From Dehalococcoidia bacterium (GTDB taxonomy: Bacteria > Chloroflexota > Dehalococcoidia > Plut-88900): a DNA stretch of 64,000 nucleotides. Position 1 is the first letter of the stretch, and every line of letters starts with the position of its first letter. The translations under genes were made by a program, and so were the position numbers. Where the stretch lies: contig CBDFLQ010000007.1 of the NCBI GenBank assembly GCA_965249275.1, positions 224,001-288,000 of the forward strand. The letters are read 5' to 3'. The notes under the pieces were generated by a model. That model saw only the letters and a program-made list of their open reading frames with translations. It had not been told where the DNA came from and made no database searches. Shown here piece by piece: positions 11,364-55,619 of the stretch.

Positions 11364-11612
11364 ATGTACCTAGCGAAAGTCCACGTAACGCTGAAACCGA
11401 CCGTGAACGACCCCCAGGGACTCACAATCCTGGGGGCTCTTCATTCTTTGGGATTTGCGTCAGCGCGGGAGGTGAGGGCGGGGAAGTATATTGAGGTCAG
11501 GGTGGACGAGGGGACTCAAGAGGCGGCTGAGGCGCAGGTTGGGGAGATGTGCAGGAAGCTGCTGGCCAACCCGGTGATTGAGAGTTTTTCGTTCGAGGTT
11601 TTGGAGGGGTAG
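11364..11612 (+). CDS. purS: FGAM synthase subunit PurS
   Basis: LKPTVNDPQG ... LLANPVIE motif, 82 aa. Confidence 0.95.
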   Translation: MYLAKVHVTLKPTVNDPQGLTILGALHSLGFASAREVRAGKYIEVRVDEGTQEAAEAQVGEMCRKLLANPVIESFSFEVLEG

Positions 11613-11676
11613 GACTCCCCTCAACCCCCCGTCATCACGTGTCCCCGCTATGAATCTGAGGGACAGCGTCCTCTCC

Positions 11677-11768
11677 GTCATTCCGGCCGCCGAGAGTCGG
11701 TCGAAGATGCGCCGAGGCGTGAATCCATCCTTGGGGAGAGGCCGCTCATCCTGAGCACCGTCGAAGGG
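11677..11768. repeat. Cluster of REP-like palindromic repeats
   Basis: GTCATTCCG...GAATCC unit containing the TCGAAGATGCGCCGAGGCGTGA hairpin (11701-11722), then CCGCTCATCCTGAGCACCGTCGAAGGG. Confidence 0.7.
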
Positions 11769-11820
11769 TCGAGCGGGGGGCGGTCCCGCACTGCCAATCC
11801 GTCGTGCCCGTCCCCCAAAA

Positions 11821-12490
11821 GTGACACGAACCCCTTGACTGTATGCGTACATGTGTACTATTATCCCCCTCGACTAGCTCGTCACACACCTAAACCCAAG
11901 GAGGAACCAAAAACCCAGGGGAAGCCCACCCGATCCACCCGAGGACTCAACGCCTCAGCCCATCCCAACGGCCCATACACGGGGCCCGCGGCTCAAGCGA
12001 AAGTCGCCATCTCCTCATCCCACGGGTCCCGTGCACCCTTCCCTGATCCCCAGGCGATGGAAGGTCCACAGACTATGCTCGGCAGGCCCCGTCCAACGAC
12101 GCACCTGCCGATTCAACGCTCCACATCATCGGATGCGTTTGTCCCGGCCCATTGCGCGCCGGTTTCCCGGGTAGGTCAACCGACCCCCGGTTTAGCAAGG
12201 CCCTCGTGCCTTGTTTGTCCCGCCGTCCCTGCCATCCGTCTACCCGGCGGATGCACCGGGACGCCGGTTATGAAAGTCCGCCTCAGGCGGCATCTTCCCC
12301 GTCAGCGGTCCGGTCAAGTGCCGCTGCCGGTGGGATCGGCCCCACACAACCCTGACCACAGCCGACAACGTGTGGGGATAATCCAGACCGGCGCCGACGG
12401 CTCGGCAGCAACCTCCGGCCTGGTTTCTAGTTACCGGGCCTTCCATCGCAGACCCTCCCAAACAAAACCGAAACCAACACCCCAAAACCC
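11821..12490 (+). ncRNA. Putative large structured ncRNA element, copy A
   Basis: Homologous to 23125-23766(-) and 26573-27240(+); long-range stem GCGATGGAAGGTCC (12054-12067) / GGGCCTTCCATCGC (12436-12449); many covarying hairpins; no conserved ORF. Confidence 0.7.
11835..11864 (+). promoter_or_regulatory. Sigma70-type promoter of element copy A, with SOS-box-like GTAC-N4-GTAC
   Basis: TTGACT (11835) - 18 bp - TATTAT (11859); same geometry in all three copies. Confidence 0.7.
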
Positions 12491-12673
12491 AATCGAATTT
12501 GCTGCAAGTGGAACACCCGCCTATGGAGGGCAGAACGTCCGCCTGGGGAGGTCCGCCTCAGGAGGACTAAAGAAAAACCCGGTGTGTCACTAATCTATCG
12601 AACGAGTACACCATATTGACCCCACTCCCCCCACCCCTTACCATTCCCACGCCGACCCACCAGGAGCACACCC

Positions 12674-14203
12674 TTGCCATCCACCGACTATGACGTAATC
12701 ATCATCGGCGCGGGCCACAACGGGCTCACCGCCGCCGCATATCTCGCCAAAGCCGGCCTCCGAGTCCTATCCCTCGAACGCCGCAGCGTCCTCGGCGGCG
12801 CAACCCTCACCGACGAGATATTTCCCGGCTACCGCCTTCCCCGCTATTCCTATGCCGCCCTCCTTCTAGAAGGCAAAGTTGTGCAGGACCTAGACCTCGA
12901 ATCCCACGGCCTCAAGGTCCTCCCCGTCGACCCCGAACGCATCCACCCCTTCCCCGACGGTCGAGCCGTACGAGTCTGGAACGACGACGCCCAGGTCGCC
13001 GAGGAAATCGCCCGCATCTCGCCCCCTGATGCCGACGCCTACCTCAAATGGGTCGACTTCTGGGTGAGGGCCGCCCACATCATTCACCCTTATATGCTTA
13101 CCTCCCCTCCCACCCTCGCCGAGGTCATGGCCTCCGTCCAGGGCACCGACGACGAGGCAGTCCTCGAACGTATCCTCTTCGGCTCCGCCTACGACATGCT
13201 CGACCAGTTCTTCGAGTCGGAGCAGGTCAAGGCGCTCTTCGCCTGGTCCTTCAACGACGCCCCCCTCTTCTTCGCTCGCCTGGAGACCTCCCGCTTCGGC
13301 GACCCCCGATACCAGGGCATCCTCCAGGGTGGCATGGGCAGCCTTCCCCGTTCCATCGAAGGAGCCGCCCGCTCCTACGGCGCTCAGTTCGAGACCAGCG
13401 CCGAGGTCCGACGTGTCCTCATTGAAAACTGCTCGGCCATCGGCGTAGAGCTTACCGACGGTCGTCAGATCAGGGCCGGGACGGTAGTCTCCAACCTCGA
13501 CCCCAAGCGCTCCCTCCTGGACATTGTCGACGAGGGACACCTCCCCTCCGACTTCCGGGCCCGCATCCGCTCCCTAAAGAACATGCGCGCCTCCATGAAG
13601 CTCCACGCCTCCCTCTCCGAGCCCCCTGACCTGAGCCACTACTTTGGCGGGGACTGGGACCTCGGATACCTGGGCCGTGTCAGGATGTGCCCTAGCCTCG
13701 ACCATGTGCGCGCCGGTCGCGCCGACGCCGATGCCGGCCGTCTCCCCCAGCACCCCTCCATGATCATGCAAATCCCTTCCGTCTACGACCCCTCAATGGC
13801 CCCCGAGGGCAAACACTGCATGTCGGTATGGGTCGAGACTGCCGCCTTCGAGCTAGCCGACGGCTCCTGGGACGACGCCCGGGAACAGGTCGCTGACATC
13901 ATCGTCGACGCCCTTTCCGTCTACGCCCCCAACATCAAGGACGCCATCATCGATAGGCAGGTCGTTACGCCCTTGGACCTCGTCCGCGAGGTCGGCCTCA
14001 CCAACGGCGACATCCTCCACTTGGATATGACCCCTCAACAGTTCTTCGCCTCTCGGCCCCTCCGAGGCTGGAACAGCTATCGCACCCCAATCGGAAACTA
14101 CTATCTCTGCGGAGCCGGGACCCATCCGGGCGGCTACGTGTCCGGGGCCCCGGGCCACAACGCCGCCCATGCCATCCTCCGAGACATGGAGCTCGCTTCT
14201 TGA
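12674..14203 (+). CDS. Phytoene-desaturase-like NAD(P)/FAD-dependent oxidoreductase
   Basis: IIGAGHNGL FAD-binding motif, GGMG, YLCGAGTHPGGYVSGAPG. Confidence 0.88.
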   Translation: MPSTDYDVIIIGAGHNGLTAAAYLAKAGLRVLSLERRSVLGGATLTDEIFPGYRLPRYSYAALLLEGKVVQDLDLESHGLKVLPVDPERIHPFPDGRAVRVWNDDAQVAEEIARISPPDADAYLKWVDFWVRAAHIIHPYMLTSPPTLAEVMASVQGTDDEAVLERILFGSAYDMLDQFFESEQVKALFAWSFNDAPLFFARLETSRFGDPRYQGILQGGMGSLPRSIEGAARSYGAQFETSAEVRRVLIENCSAIGVELTDGRQIRAGTVVSNLDPKRSLLDIVDEGHLPSDFRARIRSLKNMRASMKLHASLSEPPDLSHYFGGDWDLGYLGRVRMCPSLDHVRAGRADADAGRLPQHPSMIMQIPSVYDPSMAPEGKHCMSVWVETAAFELADGSWDDAREQVADIIVDALSVYAPNIKDAIIDRQVVTPLDLVREVGLTNGDILHLDMTPQQFFASRPLRGWNSYRTPIGNYYLCGAGTHPGGYVSGAPGHNAAHAILRDMELAS

Positions 14204-15021
14204 CCACCTCCCATCACCCCACCGACCCCGAACTTTTTACGTCCGAGTCCATCCGTAACAACCTCAACACTTCCTTCATGGGCCGCGACCTTCTTTTCTA
14301 CGACACCCTTCCCACCACCATGGATGTCGCCGATATGAAGGCCATGGCAGGCGCTTCCGAGGGCACTGTCATCCTCGCCGACGACCAGACGGCAGGCCGG
14401 GGCCGCTTCGACCGACAGTGGGTCGTCGAGAAAGGTGCTGCCATTGCAGTCTCGATCATCCTTCGTCCTCCACCCCCCGTCTCCGCCCGTCTCCATATAG
14501 TCTGCTCTCTCGCCGTGGCCCGTGCCGCCGAGACCGCCGCCGGACTCAAACCCGCCATCAAATGGCCCAACGATGTCCTTATCGACGGCAAAAAGACCTC
14601 CGGAATACTCCTCACTTCCAACCGGGACCGAGATGGCAAGTTATATGTGAACGCGGGTATCGGCATCAACGTCAACCAGACCGCCGAGTCCCTCTCCGAA
14701 ATCACCCCGCCCGCCACCAGCCTCCGCGTGCAGGCGGGCCAACCCGTCTCCCGTTTAGAAGTCTTCTGCGCCCTGCTCCATCACTTGGAAAAGCTCTATC
14801 TCGAAGCCGTCTCAGGCAGCGATCTGCTCGACCTGTGGCGCTCCTATCTCATCACCCTCGGCCAGCACGTTCGTGTACAATGGCGCAGAGAGGACATGCT
14901 CGGTTTCGTGGAGGAAGGCCGTGCCGAAGACATCGACGAATTCGGCCGCCTCCTCCTCCGCACCGACGAAGGCGAGCTGAAAACCCTGGTATCCGGAGAA
15001 GTTACGCTGCACGGCCAATAG
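14200..15021 (+). CDS. birA: Biotin--[acetyl-CoA-carboxylase] ligase (no N-terminal HTH)
   Basis: QTAGRGRFDRQW, KWPND, KKTSGIL, GIGINV. Confidence 0.92.
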   Translation: MTTSHHPTDPELFTSESIRNNLNTSFMGRDLLFYDTLPTTMDVADMKAMAGASEGTVILADDQTAGRGRFDRQWVVEKGAAIAVSIILRPPPPVSARLHIVCSLAVARAAETAAGLKPAIKWPNDVLIDGKKTSGILLTSNRDRDGKLYVNAGIGINVNQTAESLSEITPPATSLRVQAGQPVSRLEVFCALLHHLEKLYLEAVSGSDLLDLWRSYLITLGQHVRVQWRREDMLGFVEEGRAEDIDEFGRLLLRTDEGELKTLVSGEVTLHGQ

Positions 15022-15057
15022 CGGCCACAACCCAATCCCTTCTACACTGGTCACAAT

Positions 15058-15870
15058 ATGACGGACGCATACGATTTTTCAGGACGCGTGGCCCTTGTAA
15101 CAGGCGGAGGCTCAGGCCTCGGTAGAGAGGTCGCCGTGGCCCTTGCCAAGCTTGGCGCCGACGTCGTTGCCGCAGGCCGAAGGCCGGGCCCCATCCAGGA
15201 GACTGTCGACACCATCCTGGCCAATGGCGGCAGGGCCATCGCCGTCTCCACCGACGTGACCGACTCCCAAAAGGTCGACTCCCTTGTCGAGCGCACCGTC
15301 TCCGAGTTCGGCCGCATCGACATCCTCGTCAACAACGCCGGCATCTCCGGCGCAGATGACCCTGAGAAACCAGTATGGGAAATCACCGACGAGGTATGGC
15401 ACCGTGGCATTGACGGCGAGCTAACCGGCTCCTTCTTCTGTGCCCGTGCCGCGGGCAAGCACATGGTCGGTCAGCGCTACGGCAAGATCGTCAACGTCTC
15501 CTCCGGATTTGGTTATGGCACCCAGCGCGGCCAAGTCATGTACGGCGTCGCCAAGGCGGGCGTCATTCAGCTGACCCGAGTCCTCGCCATGCAGTGGGCC
15601 CGAGACAACGTCAACGTCAACTGCATCGTTCCCGGCCTCTTCTACACCCTCCCCGAGGAGATGGAGCGAACCATAGAAGAGCGCGGGCACCGCTTCATCC
15701 CCGTCGGTTTCGTAGCCACGGCCAAAGACCTCGTCGACCTCGTCCTCCTGCTCTGCTCCGACGCCTCGTCCTACATGACCGGCGAGAACATCATGGTCGA
15801 TGGCGCTGCTCTCATCGGCGCTTACGCTCCCTGGGGCTACCAGCCCCTCACCCCGACCCCGGAGGCCTGA
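15058..15870 (+). CDS. SDR family oxidoreductase (catalytic motifs intact)
   Basis: TGGGSGLG, NNAG, YGVAK (YxxxK). Confidence 0.92.
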   Translation: MTDAYDFSGRVALVTGGGSGLGREVAVALAKLGADVVAAGRRPGPIQETVDTILANGGRAIAVSTDVTDSQKVDSLVERTVSEFGRIDILVNNAGISGADDPEKPVWEITDEVWHRGIDGELTGSFFCARAAGKHMVGQRYGKIVNVSSGFGYGTQRGQVMYGVAKAGVIQLTRVLAMQWARDNVNVNCIVPGLFYTLPEEMERTIEERGHRFIPVGFVATAKDLVDLVLLLCSDASSYMTGENIMVDGAALIGAYAPWGYQPLTPTPEA

Positions 15871-15871
15871 C

Positions 15872-16585
15872 ATGTCCCCCGCTCCTTTCAATCTTAAGGG
15901 CAGAAACGCAGTCCTTGTGACACGGGGTGGCATCAATGCCCCCGCCCTCGCTGCCGCACTCACAGATGCAGGTGCAAGCCTCGCAGTGGTCCACCCCGAG
16001 TCGACCACCCCACCCCCCACCCCCAAGGCTGTGTCCTGGCCCGGTGACACGGATGGCCTCGAAGATGCGGTTTCCAGTGCCATTTTCGACCTCGGCGGCA
16101 TAGACATTCTTGTAAACGACCTCGCTGCCGACTTCGCCAAGCCCCTCGCCGATATGACCTATGCAGAATGGCGCACCACCATAGACCTGAACCTGGACTC
16201 GGTGTTCCTCTCCTGCAAAGCAGCCGCGAGCCACATGCTGGCACAGCAGAGGGGACGCATAGTAAACATCGCCTCGGGTCTCGGGGCACGCGTGGTGGTC
16301 AACCAGAGCGCCTTTTCGGCGGCCGAGGCCGGGGTCATCCACCTCACACGCGCCCTGGGCCTCGAGTGGGCCCGAGACAACGTTCGTGTCAATGCCATCG
16401 TCGGCGGCTGGATCGTCGACTCCGATGACGCACTCCCCGACAAGATTCGCCGCTACGTTCCCATGCAGCGCTGGGGCAGGCCCGAGGACCTCGGCGGCAC
16501 CCTCATCTACCTCGCCTCCGACTCCTGCGCCTTCACCACCGGCGAACCCGTCTTCATAGACGGCGGCATCATGATCCGAACGTAG
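15872..16585 (+). CDS. SDR-fold protein with degenerate catalytic motifs
   Basis: SDR C-terminal half is clear (GRIVNIAS, VRVNAI, TGE...DGG), but YxxxK reads FSAAE and the Gly-rich motif is degenerate; ATG at 15872. Confidence 0.8.
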   Translation: MSPAPFNLKGRNAVLVTRGGINAPALAAALTDAGASLAVVHPESTTPPPTPKAVSWPGDTDGLEDAVSSAIFDLGGIDILVNDLAADFAKPLADMTYAEWRTTIDLNLDSVFLSCKAAASHMLAQQRGRIVNIASGLGARVVVNQSAFSAAEAGVIHLTRALGLEWARDNVRVNAIVGGWIVDSDDALPDKIRRYVPMQRWGRPEDLGGTLIYLASDSCAFTTGEPVFIDGGIMIRT

Positions 16586-16635
16586 GATATGCCTGCCACT
16601 TGTGAAGTTCTGTTCCACTCGACTCTCTTTTACCT

Positions 16636-16663
16636 GTCATTCCGAGGCTCCGCGAGGAATCTA
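16636..16663. repeat. GTCATTCCG...GGAATC palindromic repeat
   Basis: GTCATTCCGAGGCTCCGCGAGGAATCTA, identical to 27286-27313. Confidence 0.8.
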
Positions 16664-16734
16664 AAGCATTATTTCGCAGCCCAGACTTAAATACCCTCAC
16701 AGCTTCGTCTACCAGCGCCGGCTTCCCCCTCCCC

Positions 16735-16758
16735 GTAGGGGCGACCGGCCAGTCGCCT
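16735..16758. repeat. GTAG-type REP-like hairpin
   Basis: GTAGG-GGCGAC-CGGCCA-GTCGCC: GTAG head followed by a GC hairpin. Confidence 0.55.
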
Positions 16759-16819
16759 TGACTCCCCACCCACCCTGGCCCTCTGGAAAACAAACCCAAT
16801 AGTACAAGGAGAACCCGAC

Positions 16820-17236
16820 ATGGCCACCAAGAAAGCCCTCCCTCTATCCGACGCCCCAGACCGCAGCCACGTTTTCAACTGGGGCCTCAAGGTTTCCGGC
16901 TTCAGCGAGCTCCTCCTCCTCACCGGCCAGATCGACGCCGACCGCGATGGCAACGTCCGACACCCAGGCGACGCCGTAGCACAGACCGAGGCCGTCTTCG
17001 ACTCCCTGGTCGGAATGCTCGAAGCTGAGGGCTGGTCCGTCGACGACGTCATCCGCGTCGAACCGACGATTACCGTGGACTCGGACTCGCCTGAGAATCG
17101 TGAAGGCATATACGCCGTCTGGGCAAACTGCTTCAAAGACGTGGCCGTGAAGCCCGCCGCAGGCACCCTGAGACTCATCAGCGCCCTCGCCCGACCCGGA
17201 TTCTTCGTAGAATTCGAATTCCTCTGCGCCCGTTAG
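16820..17236 (+). CDS. RidA/YjgF family protein
   Basis: LLTGQI, AQTEAVF, LARPGFFVEFE; AAGGAG RBS. Confidence 0.8.
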   Translation: MATKKALPLSDAPDRSHVFNWGLKVSGFSELLLLTGQIDADRDGNVRHPGDAVAQTEAVFDSLVGMLEAEGWSVDDVIRVEPTITVDSDSPENREGIYAVWANCFKDVAVKPAAGTLRLISALARPGFFVEFEFLCAR

Positions 17237-17275
17237 GGGGCACCCCTTCGTCTGGACATAAATCGCCCTGGACAT

Positions 17276-17320
17276 AAGGCATCGGCGGGAGCAATGTCTG
17301 CTCCCGCCGATGCCTTTTTT
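17276..17320 (+). terminator. Rho-independent terminator
   Basis: AAGGCATCGGCGGGAGCA / TGCTCCCGCCGATGCCTT stem followed by a T tract. Confidence 0.85.
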
Positions 17321-17403
17321 CATTTCCGCGCAATTCTCCCCACTCCCACAACTCCCTTCTCCTTCGACGGTTCTTTGTGGATCCGTATTGCACCCTTTCC
17401 TGC

Positions 17404-17630
17404 GTCATTCCGGGCCCCGAGCCGGAATCCATCATCTCCCACCCTCTCTGTCCCTCCACTGTACGGGCATCCACGAGGGTTGCTCTAGGGGCGGGGGAAT
17501 CCGTTCACCCTAGGCCTAAGTCGAAGGACAAGTGGATTCCTGGCGCGCTTCAGTCCCCTCTCCCTCAGTGGGTCGCAGATGCTGCAAGTGCGTCTTTGGC
17601 GCACGCCGAGGCGTGAGAGGGCTGGGGTGA
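17404..17630. repeat. Mosaic of REP-like repeats
   Basis: GTCATTCCGGGCCCCGAGCCGGAATCCA (17404-17431), GGAATCC/GGATTCC pair, CCCTCTCCC...GAGAGGGCTGGGGTGA containing a CGCCGAGGCG hairpin. Confidence 0.65.
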
Positions 17631-17666
17631 CTCCCTTCTACCTCTCCAGCTACAAAACACCCTCTA

Positions 17667-17774
17667 TTGCAACCCATACCCCATGTTGCTATCCCCTACC
17701 CATTGCCACCTGTATCCTGCTATGCAATCCCCCGCCCCTTGCCACCCGACTTCCTACGTGCTACCTTCCCGCCG
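17667..17774 (+). promoter_or_regulatory. Three degenerate 36-bp tandem units (promoter/operator-like) upstream of the HTH gene
   Basis: TTGC(A/C)ACC at 17667, 17703 and 17739, each followed by TGC(T/A)A at a fixed offset. Confidence 0.55.
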
Positions 17775-17786
17775 TAAGGAGGTCCC

Positions 17787-18119
17787 ATGCCCCAATCCCT
17801 CACCTGCTGGGAGACCGCCCGACGCCTGAACGTCAAACCTCTATGGGTCCACAGGCTCATCGACAGGGGAGACCTGAAGGTCGTTGGAGACGGCGTCACC
17901 GAGGAGTCCGTCAAGAAGCTCTTGCGCCGCCGCGAGGCACGGAAACGCCCCGCCGGCTACGTCAGCATCAAGCGTGCCTCAGTATTTCTCGGAGTCTCAC
18001 GGCAGCGGGTCCAGCAGCTCTGCGACTCGGGCGCCCTCCGCTCCAAGTCCGTAGAAGGCCGAGTCTGGATCGATGGAGAGAGCGTATTCAAGCGCGCGGA
18101 GGCCCAGCCCCGCCAATAG
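17787..18119 (+). CDS. Small DNA-binding protein with two excisionase-like HTH modules
   Basis: LTCWETARRLNV...VHRLIDRGDL and VSIKRASVFLGVSRQRVQQLCDSGAL; AAGGAGG RBS. Confidence 0.75.
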   Translation: MPQSLTCWETARRLNVKPLWVHRLIDRGDLKVVGDGVTEESVKKLLRRREARKRPAGYVSIKRASVFLGVSRQRVQQLCDSGALRSKSVEGRVWIDGESVFKRAEAQPRQ

Positions 18120-18236
18120 ATACCTATCATTGGAGCAATCCAACTCCCGCCCTCATTTACTGGCCTTTGGCCTTAATGTAGAATTCATCATGCTTAAACT
18201 CATGATTAGACTGTTGAATAACGCTCCGCCGAGACC

Positions 18237-19256
18237 ATGCTCCGCATAGCCCTGCCCAGCAACGCCGACTGGCTGGACCCTACCCTTGATTTCCTGAACT
18301 CATGCGGCCTCCCCGTTAAGAGGGTCACTGCCCGGCGTTATACGGGCCGCATGCCCGCTGTTCCCGGCGCTGTCGTACTTTTTCAGCGCTCCGCCGACAT
18401 CCCTCGCCAGGTGGAAGCTGGCGCCGCCGAGATCGGCCTTGCGGGCCTCGACCAGTTCCTCGAAGCTCACGCGGATGATGGGCCCGGGTTGCTCCTCGTC
18501 AAAAGCCTGCGCTTCCGTGGCGCAGATCTGGTAATCGCCGTCCCCGACTCCTGGGATGACGTCATCTCCGCCGAGGATCTGGCCAACCGCTCCAGGCAGT
18601 ACGAAAACGAGGGGAAATCCCTACGCGTAGCCACGAAGTACCCGCAGCTCACCAGGAGATATCTGGAAGACCAGGGCGCGGTCAACTTCTCTATCATCGA
18701 TGCCGGTGGCACCCTCGAAGCCGCTCCCGCTATGGGCTATGCCGACTTCATCGTCGACATCACTTCCACCGGCAACACCCTCCGGGAGAACCAGCTCAAA
18801 ACAATATCCGGTGGGACGGTTGTGAAGTCCCAGGCCTGCCTATTTGCCAACAAGGACCTCCTGAGCCGGGATCCCGACGCCCTCGCCGGTGTCCGCATCC
18901 TCCTTGAGCTCATCGAAGCCCGACTCCGTGCCTCCGAGTACTACAGCATCATTGCCAACATTCAGGGGGAATCCCCCGCCCAGATTGCAGGCCACATCCA
19001 ATCCCACCCCGAGATCGCAGGCATCGAGGGGCCTACCGTCTCCCAGGTCTTCAGCAAGGACGGCGAGACAGGCTGGTACGCCGTCACCATGGTCGTCGAG
19101 CGCGACAAGGTAATTACCGCCGTCGACCATATCCGAGGCATAGGTGGGAACGGCATCATCGTTTTCCCCACTACCTACGTGTTCGAAGCCAAGTGCACAA
19201 CCTACGACAACCTGCTCGAACAGCTGGGGCGCGCCCCGGTGGAAACGTCGGTTTAG
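18237..19256 (+). CDS. hisG: ATP phosphoribosyltransferase (long form)
   Basis: LRIALPS, VATKYP, GTLEAAP, VDITSTGNTLREN; C-terminal GPTVS regulatory domain. Confidence 0.95.
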   Translation: MLRIALPSNADWLDPTLDFLNSCGLPVKRVTARRYTGRMPAVPGAVVLFQRSADIPRQVEAGAAEIGLAGLDQFLEAHADDGPGLLLVKSLRFRGADLVIAVPDSWDDVISAEDLANRSRQYENEGKSLRVATKYPQLTRRYLEDQGAVNFSIIDAGGTLEAAPAMGYADFIVDITSTGNTLRENQLKTISGGTVVKSQACLFANKDLLSRDPDALAGVRILLELIEARLRASEYYSIIANIQGESPAQIAGHIQSHPEIAGIEGPTVSQVFSKDGETGWYAVTMVVERDKVITAVDHIRGIGGNGIIVFPTTYVFEAKCTTYDNLLEQLGRAPVETSV

Positions 19257-19260
19257 TGGG

Positions 19261-20007
19261 ATGCCCAACTCCTCGCTCCATATCTCCTTCGCCGACGACG
19301 CTGCCAGGGCCCTCGGCCACCCCCTCCTGACCGACTACTCAGGCAGCTACCTTCTCGGCTCCACGGCCCCCGACGTCCGGAACCTCGCCGGCTGGGACCG
19401 ATACCGCACCCACTTCTTCGACCTTGCCAACGACCAGCCCGGCAAAGGCATTCAGGGCCTCTTCGATACCTATCCTGAGCTCTCTGACGCCGCAAAACTC
19501 GGCAACGAGACCCGTGCCTTCGTCCTCGGCTATATGTGCCACCTGGTCACCGACGAGCACTGGATCGCCGGCGTCTACCGCCCCTATTTCGGCAAAAAGA
19601 CTTCCGCCGACCCGCTCACCAACGTCCTCGACCGAGTCCTCCAGTTCGAATTGGACAAGCGTGAGCGCAATGGCATCCGGGACCTTGATGGCGTACTGGA
19701 GGCCCTTAAGGACGCCGACACCGGTGTCAACGTCTCCTTCATTGACGCCGACCTCCTGCGCCGCTGGAGGGACGTGATGACGGAGCGCACCTCCATGGAT
19801 CTCGGCTGGGACCACCTGAGGCGATTTGTACGAAAGGCCCTCCCCCAGCATCTGAAAGATGACGAGGGTACTATGACCTCCGTCATTGCCCAGGGCCCCG
19901 AGCTTCTCTCCCGAGCCAAGGAGCAGGCCCCCGACCACGTCATCGCTTCCTTCAGAGCCAAGGCCATCGACAAGTTCGTTGACATCGCAGGGGAATACCT
20001 CTCTTGA
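19261..20007 (+). CDS. Zinc-dependent phospholipase C family protein
   Basis: MPxxxxH N-terminus, LGSTAPD, RTHFF, GYMCHLVTD; ATG at 19261. Confidence 0.75.
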   Translation: MPNSSLHISFADDAARALGHPLLTDYSGSYLLGSTAPDVRNLAGWDRYRTHFFDLANDQPGKGIQGLFDTYPELSDAAKLGNETRAFVLGYMCHLVTDEHWIAGVYRPYFGKKTSADPLTNVLDRVLQFELDKRERNGIRDLDGVLEALKDADTGVNVSFIDADLLRRWRDVMTERTSMDLGWDHLRRFVRKALPQHLKDDEGTMTSVIAQGPELLSRAKEQAPDHVIASFRAKAIDKFVDIAGEYLS

Positions 20008-21350
20008 GAGTCATCACCGACCTAACCGAGGCCCGTGACTTCCTCAGTCGGCTCCACGGCGGCCCCGACGCCCCTTTGAGTCCCAAAGTCGCCGCCGGCA
20101 TTGAACGCGTATTCGGCGAACCTCTATCTCTTCCCGAAGCCGTCACCGGCATCCTCGATGACGTCCGTACCAAAGGTGACGCCGCTCTCTTCGACTACCT
20201 CCGCCGCATCGACAACATTTCCCCCGACCACCTGGAAGTCCCCCAAAGCGCCCTTGATGCCACCCTGGATAAAATCCCCCCCAATGTCGCCGACTCCCTG
20301 AGATTTGCCGCCTGCCGCATCCAGGATTACCAGACCGAGTTAGCCCGGCACACCATCCGGGATTTCACAAGCAACGGCCTCGGCCAGAGAGTCACCGCCC
20401 TGGACAGGGTCGGCCTCTACGTTCCCGGCGGCACCGCCGTTTATCCTTCCACCGTGCTAATGACTGCCATTCCCGCCCGAGTCGCGGGCGTCCGGGAGAT
20501 CATTCTGGTAACTCCCCCCCGCCCCAATGGCTCAATCGCGCCCGTCGTCCTTGCGGCCGCGGCAATCGCCCGAGTCGATAGAGTCTTCGCCATCGGCGGC
20601 GCACAGGCCATAGCCGCCCTCGCTTACGGCACCGAGTCCATCCCCGCCGTCGACAAGATTTTTGGCCCCGGCAACGTCTTCGTACAGACCGCCAAGCGCA
20701 TGGTTTTCGGCACCGTAGGCGTCGACACCATCCAGGGCCCCACCGAGGCCGTCACCGTCGCCGATGACCACATTTCACCCTCCTGGTGCGCCGCCGACAT
20801 CCTCGCCCAGGCCGAGCACGACCCAGATTCCGTATCCATTCTCATTACCGATTCCCCGTCCCTCGCCGAGCGGGTCGAATCGGAGCTCACCGACCTACGT
20901 CAGCGTTCCCAGCGTCTCGATATCCTCACCCAGTCCATGGACGCCAATGGCGCTATTATCGTCACCGAATCCATTGAGCAGGCCATTGATCTATCCAACC
21001 TCTACGCCCCGGAACACCTCTGCCTCATGGTCCGCAACGCCGACCGCTATGTTGACCTAGTTAAGAACGCCGGGGCCCTGTTCCTGGGAGACCACTCTCC
21101 CCACGTTCTCGGGGACTACGTCGCAGGCCCGAGCCACGCCCTCCCCACGGCAGGCGCCGCCCGTTACAGCTCTGCCCTCGGCGTTAATGACTTTCTGAAA
21201 TCCATGTCTATAATCTCCCTGTCGGAAGAAGAGGCGGGCCCCCTTCTGGCGCACGGCATAGCGATTGCCCGACAGGAGGGCTTCGAGTCCCACGCCCGCT
21301 CCCTGGAAGTCCGCACCGCCCAGCATTCCGTTAGCAGCGCCGGAGACTGA
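20004..21350 (+). CDS. hisD: Histidinol dehydrogenase
   Basis: GLYVPGG, GGAQAIAALAYG, GPGN, AQAEHD, APEHL, GDYVAGPSH. Confidence 0.97.
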   Translation: MRVITDLTEARDFLSRLHGGPDAPLSPKVAAGIERVFGEPLSLPEAVTGILDDVRTKGDAALFDYLRRIDNISPDHLEVPQSALDATLDKIPPNVADSLRFAACRIQDYQTELARHTIRDFTSNGLGQRVTALDRVGLYVPGGTAVYPSTVLMTAIPARVAGVREIILVTPPRPNGSIAPVVLAAAAIARVDRVFAIGGAQAIAALAYGTESIPAVDKIFGPGNVFVQTAKRMVFGTVGVDTIQGPTEAVTVADDHISPSWCAADILAQAEHDPDSVSILITDSPSLAERVESELTDLRQRSQRLDILTQSMDANGAIIVTESIEQAIDLSNLYAPEHLCLMVRNADRYVDLVKNAGALFLGDHSPHVLGDYVAGPSHALPTAGAARYSSALGVNDFLKSMSIISLSEEEAGPLLAHGIAIARQEGFESHARSLEVRTAQHSVSSAGD

Positions 21351-21352
21351 AC

Positions 21353-22480
21353 ATGGATACGGAAAAGTCTCGACCCTCAATCCGAGACCTCATGCGCCCC
21401 GACCTCCGTCACCTCGCGGGCTACACCCCCGTCGTCCCTGTCGAGCGCCTGGTCGCCGAGACCGCAGCCTCATCTGGGGTGGCGCTGACCCCGGTCAAGC
21501 TGGACGCCAACGAAAACCCCTACGGCCCCTCTCCCCGCGTCCTCCAGGCCATATCTGAAAGCGAGGCCCTCCACACCTACCCCGACGCTGAGCAGCGCAC
21601 CCTCCGCGCCGCCCTCGCCGAGTACGCCGGGCTCGCCACCGAGAACATAATTGTCGGCAACGGCTCTGACGAAGTCCTCGACATGATTATCCGTCTCCTC
21701 CTGGAACCGGGTGATCGAGTGCTCAGCTGTATCCCCACATTCGGCATGTACAAGTTCCTCACCGACGTTGCCGGCGGCCAACTCATTGAGCTCCAACGCA
21801 CACCTGATTACGGGATTGACCTCGACGCCATAAAAGCCGCCACCGACGAACGTACCAAGCTCATCTTCCTCGCCTCCCCCAACAACCCCACCGGCAACAG
21901 TGTCCCGCGGGATAAGGTGATAGCCCTCCTGGAAATGGGCCTTTATGTTGTCATCGACGAGGCCTACTTCGAGTTTGCAGGCCACACCGTCGCCGACCTG
22001 GTCAAAGACTACGAAAACCTGATGGTAGTTAGGACATTCAGCAAGTGGGCGGGTCTCGCCGGCGTTCGAATCGGCTACGCCATCGTCTCCCCCGAGGTCT
22101 GTGCCTGCCTCAACCAGATCAAGCAGCCCTACAACATCAGCGTATTTGCCCAGATAGCCGCTTTGGAGTCTCTACGGGACCGGGATTACCTGATGCGCAA
22201 CGTCCAGGCCCTTGTGAAGGAAAGAGCCCGGCTCTTCGATTTCCTGCAGGGTCTCGACTACCTCTCTCCCGTCCCCTCTGAGGGCAACTACATCCTCTGC
22301 AACGTCATCCGTGGGAACGGCGAGCAGGTCTTCAACCTGCTGAAACAGCGTAATATATTCGTCCGGTATTATGATAGACCTAACTTGAAAAACTGCTTCC
22401 GAATCAGCGTCGGCAAGCCGGACGAAACCGACCGCCTCGTCGACGCCCTCGCAGAGATTGGCTTGGAATTGAATGGCTGA
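21353..22480 (+). CDS. hisC: Histidinol-phosphate aminotransferase
   Basis: [41 protein letters not shown]. Confidence 0.95.
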
Positions 22481-23072
22481 CAGACACGCCCTGCTCGAAC
22501 GAAAGACCGGTGAGACCGACATATCCATTGAGGTCGAGATCGACGGCACGGGCCAGTACACCGTCGACACCGGAGTCCCGATGCTCGACCACATGCTTTC
22601 CCAGCTAGCCCGTCACGGCGCTTTCGACCTCAATATCAGTGCCCGGTCCTCCACAGACCCCGACGGCCACCACACAGTCGAGGACGTTGCCATTCTCCTT
22701 GGAAGGGCCTTTGGCCAGGCTCTCGGGGACCGCACGGGCATCGTCAGGATGTCCCATGCCCTTGTACCCCTCGACGAGGCCCTCGCCCTTGTTGCTCTGG
22801 ACCTCGGCGGCCGAGGCTACGCCCAGGTCGACCTATCCTTCACCCAGCCCGTAGTAGGCGGCCTCACCTCCGACATGGCTCGGCACTTCCTGGAGTCCTT
22901 CGCCATCGAAGGCCGCTTCAACATCCATGCCAAAATTGAAGCTGGCACGAACGACCACCACAAAATCGAGGCCCTATTCAAAGCCCTCGCCAAATCCATG
23001 GACGCCGCCTCCCGCATAGACTCCCGCACCGCCTCCCAAGTCCCCAGCACCAAAGGCGTCATAGAAACCTAG
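22473..23072 (+). CDS. hisB: Imidazoleglycerol-phosphate dehydratase
   Basis: RKTGET, HHTVED, NDHHKIE, PSTKG. Confidence 0.97.
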
Positions 23073-23124
23073 AACGTCCGGGGGCCGCTTAGACCTTCTC
23101 TGGGAGGAGGGTATTCAGTTGTGG

Positions 23125-23766
23125 AGGGAAACTCGGTTTTGCTTGTTTGGATTGTTGGGAGGGGGAAGGCGATGGAAGGTCCGGGACTCGAGGGCAGGGG
23201 CGGGAGGCCAGCCTGCGATTACCCCACCTGTCTCTGCTGTGGCGGACGAGAGAGGCGGGGTGTCTCGTCCACAAGAGGGCACTCGACCATTCGGAGGGAT
23301 GGGAGTGCGACTCAACTTCCGCCGCTGGGTGGGAATCTCCGAGGGAACGACGGTGGAGTCGGAGCCTGGGGCACGAAGGCCCCTGGCCAGCCCTACATTA
23401 GCGGGCTCGTATATTCGCGTGCTATGCGCATAGCGTTGACTCAAATGCTTCGGGTGAGGGAGCGTTGAATCGGCTGGCGTTGTAAGGGTGGATGCCCTTA
23501 GAGTCTATGGACCTACCATCGCCTGATGGTCAGGGAAGGGATAGCCGGGGCCTTTAGTATGAGGAGATGGCGACTTTCGCTTGAGCCGGAGGGCGTCGCG
23601 CGGCGCACCTGCGGGATGGGCTAGGACGTTGAGTCCTCTGCTATGTGGGCCGGGGCTGGGGTTCCCCCTGGGTATTGGCGCCTCCTTTGGGATTAGGGTG
23701 AGTGATTGGCCTATCGAGGGTGAATATAGCACAAGTGTTTTGCTTGAGTCAAGGGGTTCGCGTCAC
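23125..23766 (-). ncRNA. Putative large structured ncRNA element, copy B (inverted)
   Basis: Reverse complement begins GTGACGCGAACCCC-TTGACT-18bp-TATATT; long-range stem 23509-23524 / 23167-23182; shares blocks GAGGACTCAACG, AGCCCATCCC, GGCTCAAGCGAAAGTCGCCATCTCCTCAT. Confidence 0.7.
23723..23752 (-). promoter_or_regulatory. Sigma70-type promoter of element copy B
   Basis: TTGACT (23752-23747) - 18 bp - extended TGc-TATATT (23728-23723). Confidence 0.65.
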
Positions 23767-23837
23767 TCGCTTCAGCGAGTCTTCGACCCCATCCCCTTTC
23801 ATGCGGGAGGGGACGCCACCCCATTCCGCTCTTGAGA

Positions 23838-24004
23838 CCCTTCGACTCGGCTCACGCCACGGCGCATCTTCGACAGGGCGAGCGGAATACCCTGCCCCCA
23901 GGAATGGAAAGGGCGTATTTCGTGAGCCGGTTCAGGGGAGGGGGGGTGCGACCACGAGAGTCGTTCCTAGGGGGGAGGGATCACCCTCACCCTAGCCCTC
24001 TCCC
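23838..24004. repeat. REP-like repeats
   Basis: CCCTTCGAC..GCTC[insert]AGGGCGAGCGG (from 23838) and CCCTCACCCTAGCCCTCTCCC (23984-24004). Confidence 0.65.
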
Positions 24005-24006
24005 AT

Positions 24007-25212
24007 TGTATAGACCGGGGACATAGGTAACAGTTGTTCGGAGACATGGGTTACACCATAAGGCATGATAAATCTGATTCAGGAGGGTTTTCATGCCATG
24101 GAAGGTTGCAAGTGCCATGTCTCAACGCGAAGAGTTCGTCGCCCTGGCGCAGTCCGAGGATGTGAATATGAGCGAGCTGTGTCTGCGCAGTGGGATCAGC
24201 CGCAAGACCGGCTACAAGTGGCTGAGACGATGCCTTGAAGGCGGAGAGCAGAGTCTGGATGATCTCCCGAAGCGTCCCCGTCACTCCCCGAACCGCACGG
24301 GCGCCGAGATGGAGCAGCTCGTCGTAGACCTTCGTAGGGAGCACCCCACCAAGGGAGGACACGTACTGGCCAGGATGCTCAAGGATAGTGGTCACAACGG
24401 CGTGCCGTCCAAGAGCACGGTCACGGCCATCCTCAGGCGACATCGACTTATAGAGCCGGCCGACAGCCTCAAGCACAAGCCGTACAGGCGCTTCGAGCAC
24501 CAACGGCCCAACGACCTTTGGCAAATGGACTTCAAGGGGCATATCCCAGTAGACAGTGGTGGACGGTGTCACCCACTGACGGTACTGGACGACCATTCGA
24601 GGTTCTCCCTGGGCGTGAGGGCTTGTGCAGACGAGAAGACTCAGACCGTCCATGACCATCTCACGTCCATCTTCCGCCGCTACGGCATGCCCAACACGAT
24701 ACTGGTAGACAATGGCTCCCCCTGGGGCAGCGACTTCTACCACCCCTTCACCCCGCTCACCGTCTGGCTGGTGCACCTGGGAGTCAGGGTGGTCCATAGC
24801 AGGCCATACCATCCCCAGACTCTCGGCAAGCTTGAACGCTTCCACAGGTCCCTCAAGACGGAACTGCTCCAGGGAAGTAAATACACCGACCTGTCCCACT
24901 GCCAGAGCAGCTTTGACAGGTGGAGAGACTTCTACAACCTCCAGCGGCCTCACCACGCCCTGGACCTCGATACCCCTGCCAGCAGATACACCATCAGCCC
25001 TCGGCCTTTCCCGGAGACCCTTCCGGCCGTCGAGTACGATGCCGATGACCAGGTACGCTCCGTCGATGTCAACGGCCGAATATCCTTCCTGGGCAGATCA
25101 CTTCCCATCGGTAAAGCCTTCAGAAACAGGCGGGTCGCGCTGAGGCCCACGGCCAACGATGGCACATGGAAGGTCTTTTTCTCCGTACAGCCCATCGCTA
25201 CCATAGATCTAG
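24007..25212 (+). mobile_element. IS481-family insertion sequence, right end not found
   Basis: 5'-TGT terminus followed by repeated GACATAGGTAACA/GACATGGGTTACA motifs, then a DDE transposase; no matching right end beyond the IS5. Confidence 0.85.
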
Positions 25213-25223
25213 GAAACCTCTGA
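24093..25223 (+). CDS. IS481 family transposase (last codons read into the IS5)
   Basis: MPWK start, HTH ISRKTGYKW, WQMDFKG, DDHSRF, VDNGSPW, PQTLGKLERFH. Confidence 0.93.
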   Translation: MPWKVASAMSQREEFVALAQSEDVNMSELCLRSGISRKTGYKWLRRCLEGGEQSLDDLPKRPRHSPNRTGAEMEQLVVDLRREHPTKGGHVLARMLKDSGHNGVPSKSTVTAILRRHRLIEPADSLKHKPYRRFEHQRPNDLWQMDFKGHIPVDSGGRCHPLTVLDDHSRFSLGVRACADEKTQTVHDHLTSIFRRYGMPNTILVDNGSPWGSDFYHPFTPLTVWLVHLGVRVVHSRPYHPQTLGKLERFHRSLKTELLQGSKYTDLSHCQSSFDRWRDFYNLQRPHHALDLDTPASRYTISPRPFPETLPAVEYDADDQVRSVDVNGRISFLGRSLPIGKAFRNRRVALRPTANDGTWKVFFSVQPIATIDLGNL

Positions 25224-26408
25224 ACAAGTCTAAGGGCATAGGTAATAGGTAAGATAGGGAGAGTAAGGCCAAAGCTGAGGTGAGATTTGATGGAGCAGCC
25301 GACATTTGCAGACTTGGAATACGAGGGCAAGAAGCGAAAGACCCGCCGGGAGATATTTCTGGAGCGGATGGAGGACCTGGTTCCATGGGGAAAGTTAGAG
25401 GAGCGAATCCGGCCCTACTATTCCAGGGCGGGCCGTGGACGGAGGCCCTACGAGTTGTCGGTGATGCTGCGGATACACTGCGTGCAGCTGTTCTACAACC
25501 TGAGCGATCCGGGCATGGAGGACATGCTCTACGAGGTGGAGTCGGTGAGGCGGTTCGCAGGTCTGAGGCTGTCCGGCCCCTTGCCTGACGAGACTACGAT
25601 ACTGAACTTCCGCCATCTGCTGGAAGAGCAGGAGTTGGGTCGGGGGCTGTTCGAGGAGATCAACCGTCATCTGGAGTCTCGGGGACTGAGGCTCAGGGAG
25701 GGTACGATTGTGGATGCGAGCATCATCGAGGCGCCGGCGTCTACGAAGAACCGTGCTGGAGAGCGAGACCCCGATATGCACCAAGTGAAGAAGGGGAAGG
25801 AGTGGCACTTCGGTATGAAAGTGCACATTGGTGCAGACGCTGACACGGGGGTGGTGCACAGTATGAGTACGACAGCTGCGAACGTGCATGACGTGACGGA
25901 GGCGCACCGGCTGCTGCATGGAGGGGAGAGGCGAGTGTGGGGAGATGCGGGATATCAGGGAGTGGAGAAGCGGGCGGAGAATCGGGATATGGATGTGGAG
26001 TGGCGGGTGGCGATGAGACCTGGACGGCGTCGGAAACTGAGGGCGGGGAGCTGCGAGGCCTTAGCGGAGAAGAGCAAATCATCCATCAGGGCTAAGGTGG
26101 AGCATCCGTTCCTGTACGTGAAACGGCACTTCGGCTACGCCAAGGTCCGCTACAGGGGCTTGTACAAGAACACGCAACGGGTGGCGATGCTGCTGGGGCT
26201 GGCCAACTTGGTAAGGGCCGAGCGCCACTTAGCGGTGTGACGGAGGAGCAGTGTGGTCAAATCCGGGTCGATGGTGACTGGATGCCCTGACAGGCCAGAA
26301 CATAGGATGCAAATAAGCCACCGAGACGCAACATTACGACCCAACCTCTCCCCAAAACTCCATGCAAGACAACCTAAGCTGGTTTACAGTGAGTTGTTCA
26401 GAGCTTCC
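25213..26408 (+). mobile_element. IS5-family insertion sequence, 1196 bp, flanked by CTAG
   Basis: Imperfect 18-bp TIRs GAAACCTCTGAACAAGTC / GAGTTGTTCAGAGCTTCC; CTAG at 25209-25212 and 26409-26412. Confidence 0.92.
25287..26240 (+). CDS. IS5 family transposase
   Basis: PDETTILNFR, IVDASII, FGMKVHIG, GDAGYQG, RAKVEHPF, RYRGL. Confidence 0.95.
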   Translation: MMEQPTFADLEYEGKKRKTRREIFLERMEDLVPWGKLEERIRPYYSRAGRGRRPYELSVMLRIHCVQLFYNLSDPGMEDMLYEVESVRRFAGLRLSGPLPDETTILNFRHLLEEQELGRGLFEEINRHLESRGLRLREGTIVDASIIEAPASTKNRAGERDPDMHQVKKGKEWHFGMKVHIGADADTGVVHSMSTTAANVHDVTEAHRLLHGGERRVWGDAGYQGVEKRAENRDMDVEWRVAMRPGRRRKLRAGSCEALAEKSKSSIRAKVEHPFLYVKRHFGYAKVRYRGLYKNTQRVAMLLGLANLVRAERHLAV

Positions 26409-26464
26409 CTAGGACTTGTCCTCTCACGCCCTTCCTAGTCTTCCTTCCCCTCCCCCCTGGTAAC

Positions 26465-26505
26465 GACATATCAGCAATGTTGCAAGGCAACATTGCTGAT
26501 ATGTC
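26465..26505. repeat. Perfect 19-bp inverted repeat with a 3-nt loop
   Basis: GACATATCAGCAATGTTGC-AAG-GCAACATTGCTGATATGTC. Confidence 0.9.
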
Positions 26506-26572
26506 AATAAAACAGGGCGGGTGGGCGGGACTCAATATATCCCTGAGGGTGGTGGGGGGGCCTCTCCCAAAT

Positions 26573-27240
26573 GTGACACGAACCCCTTGACCTAATTGGA
26601 ACGTGTGTACTATTATTCCTCTCGACTAGCTCGTCACCCATTCCTAACGTAAAGGAGGAACCACAACACAGGGGGAATCCCAGCCCCGGCCCACACGAGG
26701 ACTCAACGTCCAAGCCCATCCCGCCGAGCGGCGTTAGCCGCTCCTAGGCTCAAGCGAAAGCCGCCATCTTCTCATACCATAGGCCCCGGCTTATCCTTCC
26801 CCCACCATCCACGCGATGGAAGGTCCGTAGACTATAAGCGGCAAGCCCTGTCCAAGGGCCCCTGCCGATACAACGCTCCCCTCATCAGGAGCGTATACCT
26901 CGCCCTCGCAGGCGAATACGCTGACCCCGCCAATGGCCGGGCTTAGATACAGGGCCTTTGAGCCCATAACCGACTCCCCCGCCGACGCCTTCGGAGAGGC
27001 ACGCGCACCCCTCGGCGGCTCCGAGTCCCGCTCCCATCCCTCTGCATGGTCGAGCACTTCTGGTGGTCGGGACGCCCCACACCGAGAATCCCTCGGGTCC
27101 CCTCCACATCCTCTCAGAAGCTAGGGGCTGTCCTGTGCAGGCAGTCGACGCCCACAGGCACCGGCACAGGCCTAACCGCCTCCCTGCCCAACACTCTCGG
27201 ACCTTCCATCGCCACCCTCCCCACACCAAACAAAAATCCA
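26573..27240 (+). ncRNA. Putative large structured ncRNA element, copy C
   Basis: Perfect 15-bp long-range stem 26813-26827 / 27198-27212; same conserved blocks and hairpin order as copies A and B. Confidence 0.7.
26587..26616 (+). promoter_or_regulatory. Sigma70-type promoter of element copy C, with SOS-box-like GAAC-N4-GTAC
   Basis: TTGACC - 18 bp - TATTAT; GAACGTGTGTAC at 26599-26610. Confidence 0.7.
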
Positions 27241-27285
27241 GAGTCCCAACTCCCAACTGAATAACCGACGGCCTCCCGCTCCCCT

Positions 27286-27313
27286 GTCATTCCGAGGCTC
27301 CGCGAGGAATCTA
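27286..27313. repeat. GTCATTCCG...GGAATC palindromic repeat
   Basis: Identical to 16636-16663. Confidence 0.8.
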
Positions 27314-27355
27314 GGACTTGCCCACCCACATCCTTCATAGCCTTCCCCCAACCCC

Positions 27356-55510: not shown

Positions 55511-55619
55511 ACAGGAGGTGACCACTCTCCGCATAAGAGAGGGTCCCTAGCGCGTTGGGCAAGAGTCCCGGGCAGAGCGCAACAAGACCTCCAGCGGAGA
55601 ACCGCAGGAGGTCGTTTTT

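Follow-up and report, generated by a model that had tools for sequence, protein, structure and literature searches.

Nonautonomous transposons of bacteria are normally short and anonymous inside. Miniature inverted-repeat transposable elements (MITEs) usually measure less than ~600 bp, and the Correia elements of Neisseria are MITE-type nonautonomous derivatives of insertion sequences (ISs). Members of the IS3 and IS481 families, with rve-type transposases, are recognized by TG...CA ends, target duplications of 3 to 5 or 4 to 15 bp, and a promoter in the left end. Here, we describe a larger element that occurs in three copies (A, B, and C) in a 64,000-nt stretch of a Dehalococcoidia genome (assembly GCA_965249275.1, contig CBDFLQ010000007.1, positions 224,001 to 288,000), referred to below as the window. 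The copies are probably nonautonomous DNA transposable elements of ~0.74 to 0.9 kb whose cargo is a promoter-driven, structured noncoding RNA (ncRNA) of ~600 to 700 nt. A first-pass annotation of the window had proposed a free-standing RNA of ~600 nt. Its noncoding nature, conserved promoter, strong folding, and absence from Rfam all held up; the RNA itself appears to be transposon cargo, and its transcription is only weakly indicated.

Like MITEs and Correia elements, the element has inverted repeats and target duplications, lacks a transposase, is intergenic and multicopy, and combines promoter activity with an RNA fold. Unlike them, it is 5 to 8 times larger, has a complete sigma-70-type promoter of its own, keeps a multihelix interior better than its ends, and shows a 5-bp duplication, a landing site at the edge of −35 hexamers, and exchangeable modules. 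With IS3 and IS481 elements it shares the TG...CA ends, the 5-bp duplication, and a left end whose inward-directed promoter precedes a Shine-Dalgarno-like AAGGAGG; it differs from them in having no transposase open reading frame (ORF) and in ends that match the resident ones only in TGTA(C).

BOX repeats are modular (boxA-boxB-boxC), and the RNA named HEARO is multicopy and carried by a mobile element. The pneumococcal repeats BOX, RUP, and SPRITE are interspersed and intergenic (PMC3049150). BOX units measure tens of nucleotides, belong to another clade, and, unlike our element, lack a promoter and a conserved 600-nt fold. OLE, ROOL, and GOLLD (PMC12286853) resemble the element in length (600 to 800 nt), in their many helices and conserved unpaired blocks, and in the absence of an ORF. 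Unlike these large ornate RNAs, the element has no Rfam match, is present in ~40 to 70 copies per genome, and apparently resides in a DDE-type transposon; the partner nuclease families of HEARO and omega RNAs were not found in the genome that holds the window. Putative mobile promoters (PMC3575422) likewise place one promoter-bearing sequence upstream of many unrelated genes. Unlike in that case, the genes downstream of our element keep their own promoter, as seen at empty sites, and the carried promoter would drive the RNA of the element. What is unusual, then, is a conserved, promoter-driven, modular RNA cargo of 600 nt that is kept better than the ends of its carrier, together with domain shuffling and a base-precise position at −35 hexamers. 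The element is large, and dozens of old copies preserve its promoter and 600-nt fold, apparently through purifying selection.

A genus-wide family of repeats

All three copies lie where the first-pass annotation had placed them and can be aligned over ~700 nt with a mean column identity of 71%; every sequence block it had named is found in A, B, and C, in the same order. The count of three was far too low for the genome as a whole. An iterated nhmmer search (E ≤ 0.001) of the genome holding the window (G000; 2.9 Mb, seven contigs, 59% G+C, 87% complete) yielded 74 matches: 54 strong ones, 13 weaker ones that constitute a sister family, and 7 to the promoter only. The strong matches represent the 243-nt 5′ part of the element, and 1 of the 54 is truncated by a contig end, which leaves at least 53 full copies. 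Members of the sister family have the same promoter, closing-helix type, and kind of 3′ domain as the main family and differ in their 5′ module. This alternative module reads CCCAGGCCCGAC...GGACUAAAGGAGUCCCAUGAGUCGCAC... (13 loci in G000, for example, C6:141657, C5:169173, and C7:453337), and some members have an extra middle module.

For other genomes, a covariance model (R1) was built on the 165-nt 5′ module, and 150 candidates were scored per genome. R1 gave 23 to 69 matches in each of the nine genomes that represent the genus and none in three other genera of the family (genomes 80 to 94% complete). In a class-level sample of 151 genomes, the five with matches all belonged to this genus, and the 146 others had none. 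The family that includes A, B, and C spans the genus, which is one of sponge-associated bacteria; the search of this genome and other Chloroflexota that the first-pass annotation had proposed found the family throughout the genus and nowhere else in the class sample. A 24-base motif of the element had no match on viral contigs, which argues against a phage origin, and was present on five short contigs from one metagenome assembly. Nearest-neighbor identity among copies ranges from 71 to 96.6%, with none above, indicating a family that is old yet undecayed; for comparison, copies of resident ISs are 96 to 99% identical between genomes.

Transposon ends, target duplications, and empty sites

Complete copies start with TGATCCCGTTCA and end with CGAACGAGTACA. 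The inserted unit begins TGATC(C/T)CGTTCA and ends CGAACGAGT(A/G)CA, giving TG...CA termini. Its inverted repeats are imperfect: TG, CYCGTTC, and GTGACA blocks occur both in the left end TGATCCCGTTCACATAGAGGGGTGACA and in the reverse complement of the right end TGTACTCGTTCGGTAGATTAGTGACAC. All 23 occurrences in G000 of a 28-nt box, GTGTCACTAATCTACCGAACGAGTACAC, are 690 to 880 nt downstream of an element start and on the same strand. As an RNA hairpin or dif-like site, this box showed no consistent pairing across species (judged by eye), and we assign it to the right terminal repeat.

Both termini are recognizable in 15 of 66 elements in G000, 739 to 902 bp apart. The 5-mers flanking these 15 complete copies are identical in 10 and match at four of five positions in 2, compared with a mean of 0.8 and a maximum of 5 perfect pairs when the pairings were shuffled (2,000 shuffles). 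Eleven elements from other genomes, several of which are orthologues of G000 insertions, gave a similar picture, with flanking 5-mers matching at 5/5 positions in four, 4/5 in five, 3/5 in one, and 1/5 in one. At G000:C6:148097, the right 5-mer and host hexamer (CCCAA TTGACC) recur 222 nt upstream of the element promoter, which suggests a longer duplication or nested arrangement there.

Comparing the flanks of elements in other genomes with G000 produced three candidate empty sites, two with clean junctions and a third with a blurred left junction. The 874-nt insert of G002 is bounded by ...CCAAAA and TTGAGCC, and the corresponding sequence at G000:C7:435742-436163 is continuous (...CCCAAAATTGAGCC). 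In G001, a 763-nt insert has TTTCG on both sides, and G000:C5:630264-630792 is empty (GCTTTCGTTGACAG). Within the window, copy B is missing next to hisB in four sister genomes, and copy C is orthologous in G002 and G005. Four of the six properties examined for the MITE class are present (ends, duplications, empty sites, and no internal transposase); the usual size is not, given the distance of 739 to 902 bp between the termini.

The TG...CA termini, inverted repeats, 5-bp duplications, and empty sites argue for DNA-based mobility. The second option of the first-pass annotation, a nonautonomous RNA-based mobile element, was therefore right about a nonautonomous, mobile unit and wrong about an RNA basis. 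Among the enzymes of RNA-based elements that it had listed as possible neighbors, RVT_1, PF07282 (the TnpB zinc ribbon), PF01548 (the IS110 DEDD domain), and PF01797 (Y1) each had zero matches in G000, and the positive controls responded. No retroelement, TnpB, IS110, or IS200/605 partner was thus found in this 87%-complete genome. A group II intron, retron, IS110 bridge RNA, TnpB/IscB omega RNA, or other RNA-guided or retro-type element is thus highly improbable: a multicopy structured RNA in a mobile unit does recall HEARO and omega RNAs, but Rfam is blank even at E ≤ 10, the enzyme domains were not found in G000, and a DDE enzyme is indicated by both the target duplications and the TG...CA ends.

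We also looked at what lies near the elements. No recurrent neighboring protein was found around 67 loci; an IS481-like transposase is located within 4.5 kb of 11 of the 67, and genes of large paralog families (luciferase-like and amidohydrolase-like) recur near the loci. Among the resident IS481-like elements, nine ends were located, with no pairs. In the window, an IS481-like element lies back to back with an IS5-like element that interrupts its right end. Copies of both, 96 to 99% identical, are found in G002 and G005.

Anatomy and coding potential

The element starts with a GTGACA box, followed by TTGAC and, after ~17 to 18 nt, a TAnnAT-type hexamer. The promoter (P1) is followed by a small palindromic hairpin of four or more sequence types and then by AAGGAGG. 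In the conserved module, AGGGAAG, GAGGACUCAACG, AGCCCAUCCCAA, a variable hairpin, GGCUCAAGC, CCAUCUCCUC, and CCCUUCCCU follow one another. A closing helix of 14 to 17 bp, consisting of GCGAUGGAAG and 4 to 7 more pairs that vary by domain type, bounds a 3′ domain of 305 to 540 nt (arms included), of which there are at least nine types with 16, 13, 11, 4, 3, 2, 2, 1, and 1 copies. The A/C-rich tail ends in CACAACUGAAUA (mean composition, 35% A, 41% C, 13% G, and 11% T), and the terminal box follows it in 26 of 66 copies. Conservation is concentrated in particular parts: the TTGAC of P1 persists in 51 of 53 copies, every copy has a TAnnnT-type hexamer, and the 165-nt 5′ module is intact in 53 of 53, with only 30 to 60% conservation in the promoter spacer. 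A reading of the 3′ domain as an independent nested MITE was not supported, as the domain was seen only within promoter-bearing elements of the main or sister family.

In the window copies, a promoter scan detected TTGACT or TTGACC, an 18-nt spacer, and TATTAT or TATATT in A, B, and C, with 10 of 12 consensus matches. Across positions 11500 to 12800, the scan returned three promoter sites, compared with 0.2 in shuffles; no intrinsic terminators were found in the window copies. The lengths that the first-pass annotation gave for the sequence enclosed by the closing helix are correct for A (368 nt) and B (326 nt), whereas C encloses 372 rather than 370 nt.

G000 contains 74 instances of a small hairpin repeat (RTCCGCY, 3 to 4 nt, and GGMGGA, in many cases with GGAAC in front). 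Thirty-six of these repeats lie within elements (31 in the sense orientation), often in tandem or in loops, and the other 38 in intergenic repeats elsewhere.

The absence of a shared ORF, already remarked in the first-pass annotation, was confirmed. The conserved ATG in GCGATGG opens frames of 4 to 254 amino acids that are not the same even in the 13 most similar copies, and 10 internal ORFs had no Pfam match at E ≤ 1; given the unshared ORFs and the lack of Pfam matches, we rejected a coding or eroded gene. A leader of the kind found in ribosomally synthesized and posttranslationally modified peptides, with a variable core, was also rejected, since the lengths of indels in the conserved module are not divisible by three. 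The element also belongs to no known RNA family, as the first-pass annotation had supposed: an Rfam 15 scan found no match to it at gathering score, copy A had no match at E ≤ 10, and 10 loci covering other domain types gave, at E ≤ 1, just a subthreshold tRNA match outside the element. OLE, ROOL, GOLLD, HEARO, group II introns, and the rest of Rfam 15 are excluded by the lack of a covariance-model match. Full-text literature searches, which do not extend to supplementary files, returned no description of the element. At present, ~400 loci in nine genomes are unannotated or miscalled as ORFs, such as the 252-amino-acid frame in A.

RNA structure, constraint, and expression

We observed conserved secondary structure with compensatory change, the evidence for which is moderate. 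For 19 copies with a type 1 domain, RNAalifold returned 133 pairs, and 97.9% of cells pair. Eight pairs are altered on both sides, compared with 2.7 in shuffles (0 of 500), and identity is 97.1% in paired and 88.9% in unpaired columns. In the 5′ module, the proposed helices are AGGGAAG/CUUCCCU, GAGGA/UCCUC, AGCC/GGCU, and a small hairpin. Across 76 copies of this module, 93.6% of cells pair versus 88.3% after shuffling, with a covariation score of 0.184 versus 0.098 (0 of 500 shuffles). A further 97 copies aligned to the model, an alignment that leans toward it, gave 93.7 versus 89.3% and 0.123 versus 0.060. Minimum-energy folding of A, B, and C as single sequences also yields the AGGGAAG/CUUCCCU helix. 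Hairpins of dissimilar sequence occupy homologous positions between AGCCCAUCCCAA and GGCUCAAGC and at several places in the 3′ domain, and the compensatory hairpins named in the first-pass annotation were seen. Its assignment of the promoter strand from G-U wobbles was confirmed only in part: sense/antisense folding z scores favor the sense strand in A (−4.92/−2.75) and C (−6.29/−1.36) and not in B (−4.12/−4.25).

The 3′ domain of copy C has 97.2% identity to its orthologue in G002 and 96.0% to that in G005, compared with 89.0% and 80.6% at the third codon positions of the adjacent gene. The orthologous 3′ domain has thus diverged 4 to 5 times less than third codon positions.

Transcription from P1 is weakly indicated. 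Contigs from RNA libraries, 85 to 253 nt long at a depth of 2 to 6, fall on A and C in three RNA or RNA-like runs (X18 to X20). Examples are a 132-nt contig at 12104 to 12234 with no differences and a 253-nt contig at 12078 to 12325 with 11. The runs are represented by contigs only; uncovered bins and depths carry no evidence either way, and the shares are small (0.06 to 0.12).

The left terminus is recognizable in 16 and the right in 26 of 66 elements in G000, and the module is intact in 53 copies, which is the reverse of what would be expected for a merely selfish repeat. In such a purely selfish, MITE-like repeat, the promoter and AAGGAGG would be IS leftovers (a transposase promoter and ribosome-binding site), the structure would come from inverted or palindromic repeats, and the RNA would be functionless. 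The inverted repeats, target duplications, and empty sites would all fit, as would the nested small hairpin repeats, the equal folding of B on both strands, the modest covariation, and the abundance of other intergenic palindromes in G000. We nevertheless consider this unlikely. The ends should then be the best-kept part, yet only 16 (left) and 26 (right) of 66 copies show them, while the promoter hexamers and module are present in all 53 copies; helices are better conserved than loops; the 3′ domain is less diverged than third codon positions; and nearest identities of 71 to 96.6% describe copies that are old but undecayed.

The same retention of the interior beyond the ends raises the possibility, which we regard as real but minor, of a host-domesticated family of trans-acting RNA genes of transposon origin, serving as a scaffold for a ribonucleoprotein, as a sponge, or as an assembly made of RNA only. 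The strictly conserved unpaired GAGGACUCAACG, AGCCCAUCCCAA, and CAAGC, suggestive of tertiary or protein contacts, would agree with such a role, as would the retention of 23 to 69 copies in nine of nine genomes of the genus. Against it stand the failure to find a recurrent neighboring protein around the loci, the unproven expression, and the dozens of divergent paralogs, which are atypical of a housekeeping RNA.

Position beside host promoters

The right end of the element usually lies 5 bp from a host TTGnnn hexamer. In 16 of 26 copies, the hexamer after the right duplication begins with TTG, and in 21 of 26, TAnnnT is found 16 to 18 nt further on. Both clean empty sites have the host hexamer without the element. 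The hexamer adjacency and the empty sites together suggest that insertion takes place at the upstream edge of host −35 hexamers and spares the host promoter. The downstream genes are diverse and, from their N termini, we take them to be proA, argC, uvrA, ribF, def, and lgt, among others; the Pfam check of downstream genes covered the amine-oxidase-like gene in the window. According to crude ORF calls, the downstream gene is codirectional in 44 of 66 cases and convergent in 22 (B and C included), and the upstream gene is divergent in 42 of 66. An RNA-binding domain of Rho is encoded once in each of eight of eight congeners.

This placement bears on the possibility that the element is a cis-acting leader or insulator, in which Rho termination in the tail, tuned by the fold, sets readthrough into, or interference with, the downstream gene. 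The codirectional majority would suit such a device, as would a right end adjoining the promoters of genes that, named from their N termini, appear to be housekeeping genes, a rut-like tail without intrinsic terminators, and the presence of Rho in the genus. It is nonetheless quite unlikely, since one-third of the copies (22 of 66) face a convergent gene, the empty sites show the host promoter working without the element, and a conserved 600-nt fold with exchangeable domains exceeds the needs of an attenuator.

Module exchange and rearrangement

At locus A, the 5′ module is 88% identical to that of G002 and G005, and the 3′ domain is unrelated (43%), with exact swap boundaries from GCGATGGAA to TTCCATCGC. 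Locus C shows 97 to 99% identity in the 3′ domain and flanks, 74% in the promoter-leader, and 86% in the 5′ module. Leader, hairpin, and 3′-domain types combine freely among the 53 copies. The elements also coincide with rearrangement breakpoints between species. In G001, G004, G006, G007, and G008, the genes that flank A lie 8 to 10 kb apart and are mutually inverted, with the breakpoint in the intergenic region of the element.

A model for the element and points that weigh against it

To account for these features as those of a transposon with an RNA cargo, we propose that an rve-type (IS3/IS481-like) DDE transposase, acting in trans, would cut the element and insert it at the upstream edge of −35 hexamers; we infer the enzyme class from family traits known in general. 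P1, in the left end, may be a former transposase promoter that transcribes inward and would now drive the RNA. Shine-Dalgarno-like stabilizers exist in Bacillus, and by analogy the 5′ hairpin and an exposed AAGGAGG may stabilize the RNA. The 5′ module is predicted to fold through the long-range helices AGGGAAG/CUUCCCU and GAGGA/UCCUC, and the 14- to 17-bp helix would bear one of at least nine interchangeable 3′ domains. The C-rich, G-poor tail may load Rho, ending transcription before the host promoter and so protecting it. Modules pass between copies by recombination. Most copies are left without recognizable termini and still retain promoter and RNA; with the termini lost and promoter and RNA kept, the RNA itself seems to be what selection keeps.

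Several observations weigh against this reading. Regarding the transposon, neither terminus is recognizable in B or C even at relaxed stringency, and in A only the right end is; the 5-mers on either side are unrelated in 3 of the 15 complete copies. The ends of resident IS481-like elements and of an IS3-like element of G005 have only TGTA(C) in common with the element, and a nonexhaustive search among the IS481-like and IS3-like elements examined turned up no transposase flanked by matching ends. Differential survival of insertions could account for part of the −35 adjacency, and the Rho RNA-binding domain was not found in the G000 assembly, which is 87% complete. Regarding the RNA, the antisense strand of B folds as well as the sense strand (z scores of −4.25 and −4.12). 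G-U exceeds A-C in 120 versus 30 cells and in only 28 versus 23 column pairs, in a structure that was predicted on the sense strand. The conserved module has few compensatory changes, many of which amount to two or three subfamily states, and covariation in the closing helix mirrors a division of the domains into two or three classes. Conservation of 97 to 99% is likewise seen in the intergenic flanks of C, so the low divergence there is not specific to the RNA. RNA-library contigs are also found on flanking genes, and DNA carryover is possible.

A more active role for the RNA appears unlikely at this stage: it could represent a new class of large modular RNA that works with the DDE transposase, as a scaffold or guide to the −35 edge, or a host-required ribonucleoprotein or RNA-only assembly. 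In that case, the transposon would have spread a combinatorial repertoire of exchangeable 3′ domains. Promoter-targeted integration is known in yeast retrotransposons, and, if the RNA is functional, the element would offer a bacterial counterpart, with a large transposon-borne RNA that has no known protein partner.

Features of the window

The coordinates of the three copies, of the parts of A, and of the adjacent ISs are listed in Table 1.

Table 1. Positions of the element copies, their parts, and neighboring insertion sequences in the window
Feature	Start	End	Strand	Remarks
Copy A	11821	12610	+	Extends from the upstream box GTGACAC to the terminus ...GAGTACA on the right; left terminus unrecognized
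Promoter P1 of A	11835	11864	+	TTGACT-18-TATTAT
Conserved 5′ module of A	11898	12053	+	From alignments A2 and A5 and pair counts; contains AAGGAGG, AGGGAAG, GAGGACTCAACG, AGCCCATCCCAA, variable hairpin, GGCTCAAGCGAAAGTCGCCATCTCCTC, CCCTTCCCT
Closing helix of A, 5′ arm	12054	12067	+	GCGATGGAAGGTCC
Exchangeable 3′ domain of A	12068	12435	+	Type 1; 13 copies in G000
Closing helix of A, 3′ arm	12436	12449	+	GGGCCTTCCATCGC
Tail of A	12450	12500	+	A/C-rich, G-poor, rut-like
Tandem small hairpin repeats in A	12510	12567	+	GGAAC.TCCGCC...GG.GGA; nested
Right terminal inverted repeat (box) of A	12584	12610	+	Ends ...GAGTACA
CCATA at the right target-duplication position of A	12611	12615	+	Left counterpart not found
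Host promoter adjoining A	12616	12644	+	TTGACC-17-TACCAT; of amine-oxidase-like gene (12674-14203)
Copy B	23111	23766	−	P1, 23752-23723; closing arms, 23522-23509 and 23182-23169
Copy C	26573	27263	+	P1, 26587-26616; closing arms, 26813-26826 and 27199-27212
IS481-like insertion sequence	24007	25208	+	ORF 24093-25223 (rve and HTH); between B and C
IS5-like insertion sequence	25209	26412	+	ORF 25287-26240 (DDE_Tnp_1); back to back with the IS481-like element

The only matches to Rfam at gathering score in the window are a cobalamin riboswitch (55342 to 55524, plus strand; 106.5 bits) and a tRNA (59506 to 59577, minus strand; 69 bits). Further intergenic palindromic repeats lie beside the elements, at positions 11600 to 11820, 23770 to 24000, and 27263 to 27355. 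Such flanking palindromes include GTCATTCCGAGGCTCCGCGAGGAATC and CCCCTCTCCC...GGGAGAGGGCTAGGGTGAGGGTGATCCC, and an IS481-like element has repeatedly inserted next to the latter.

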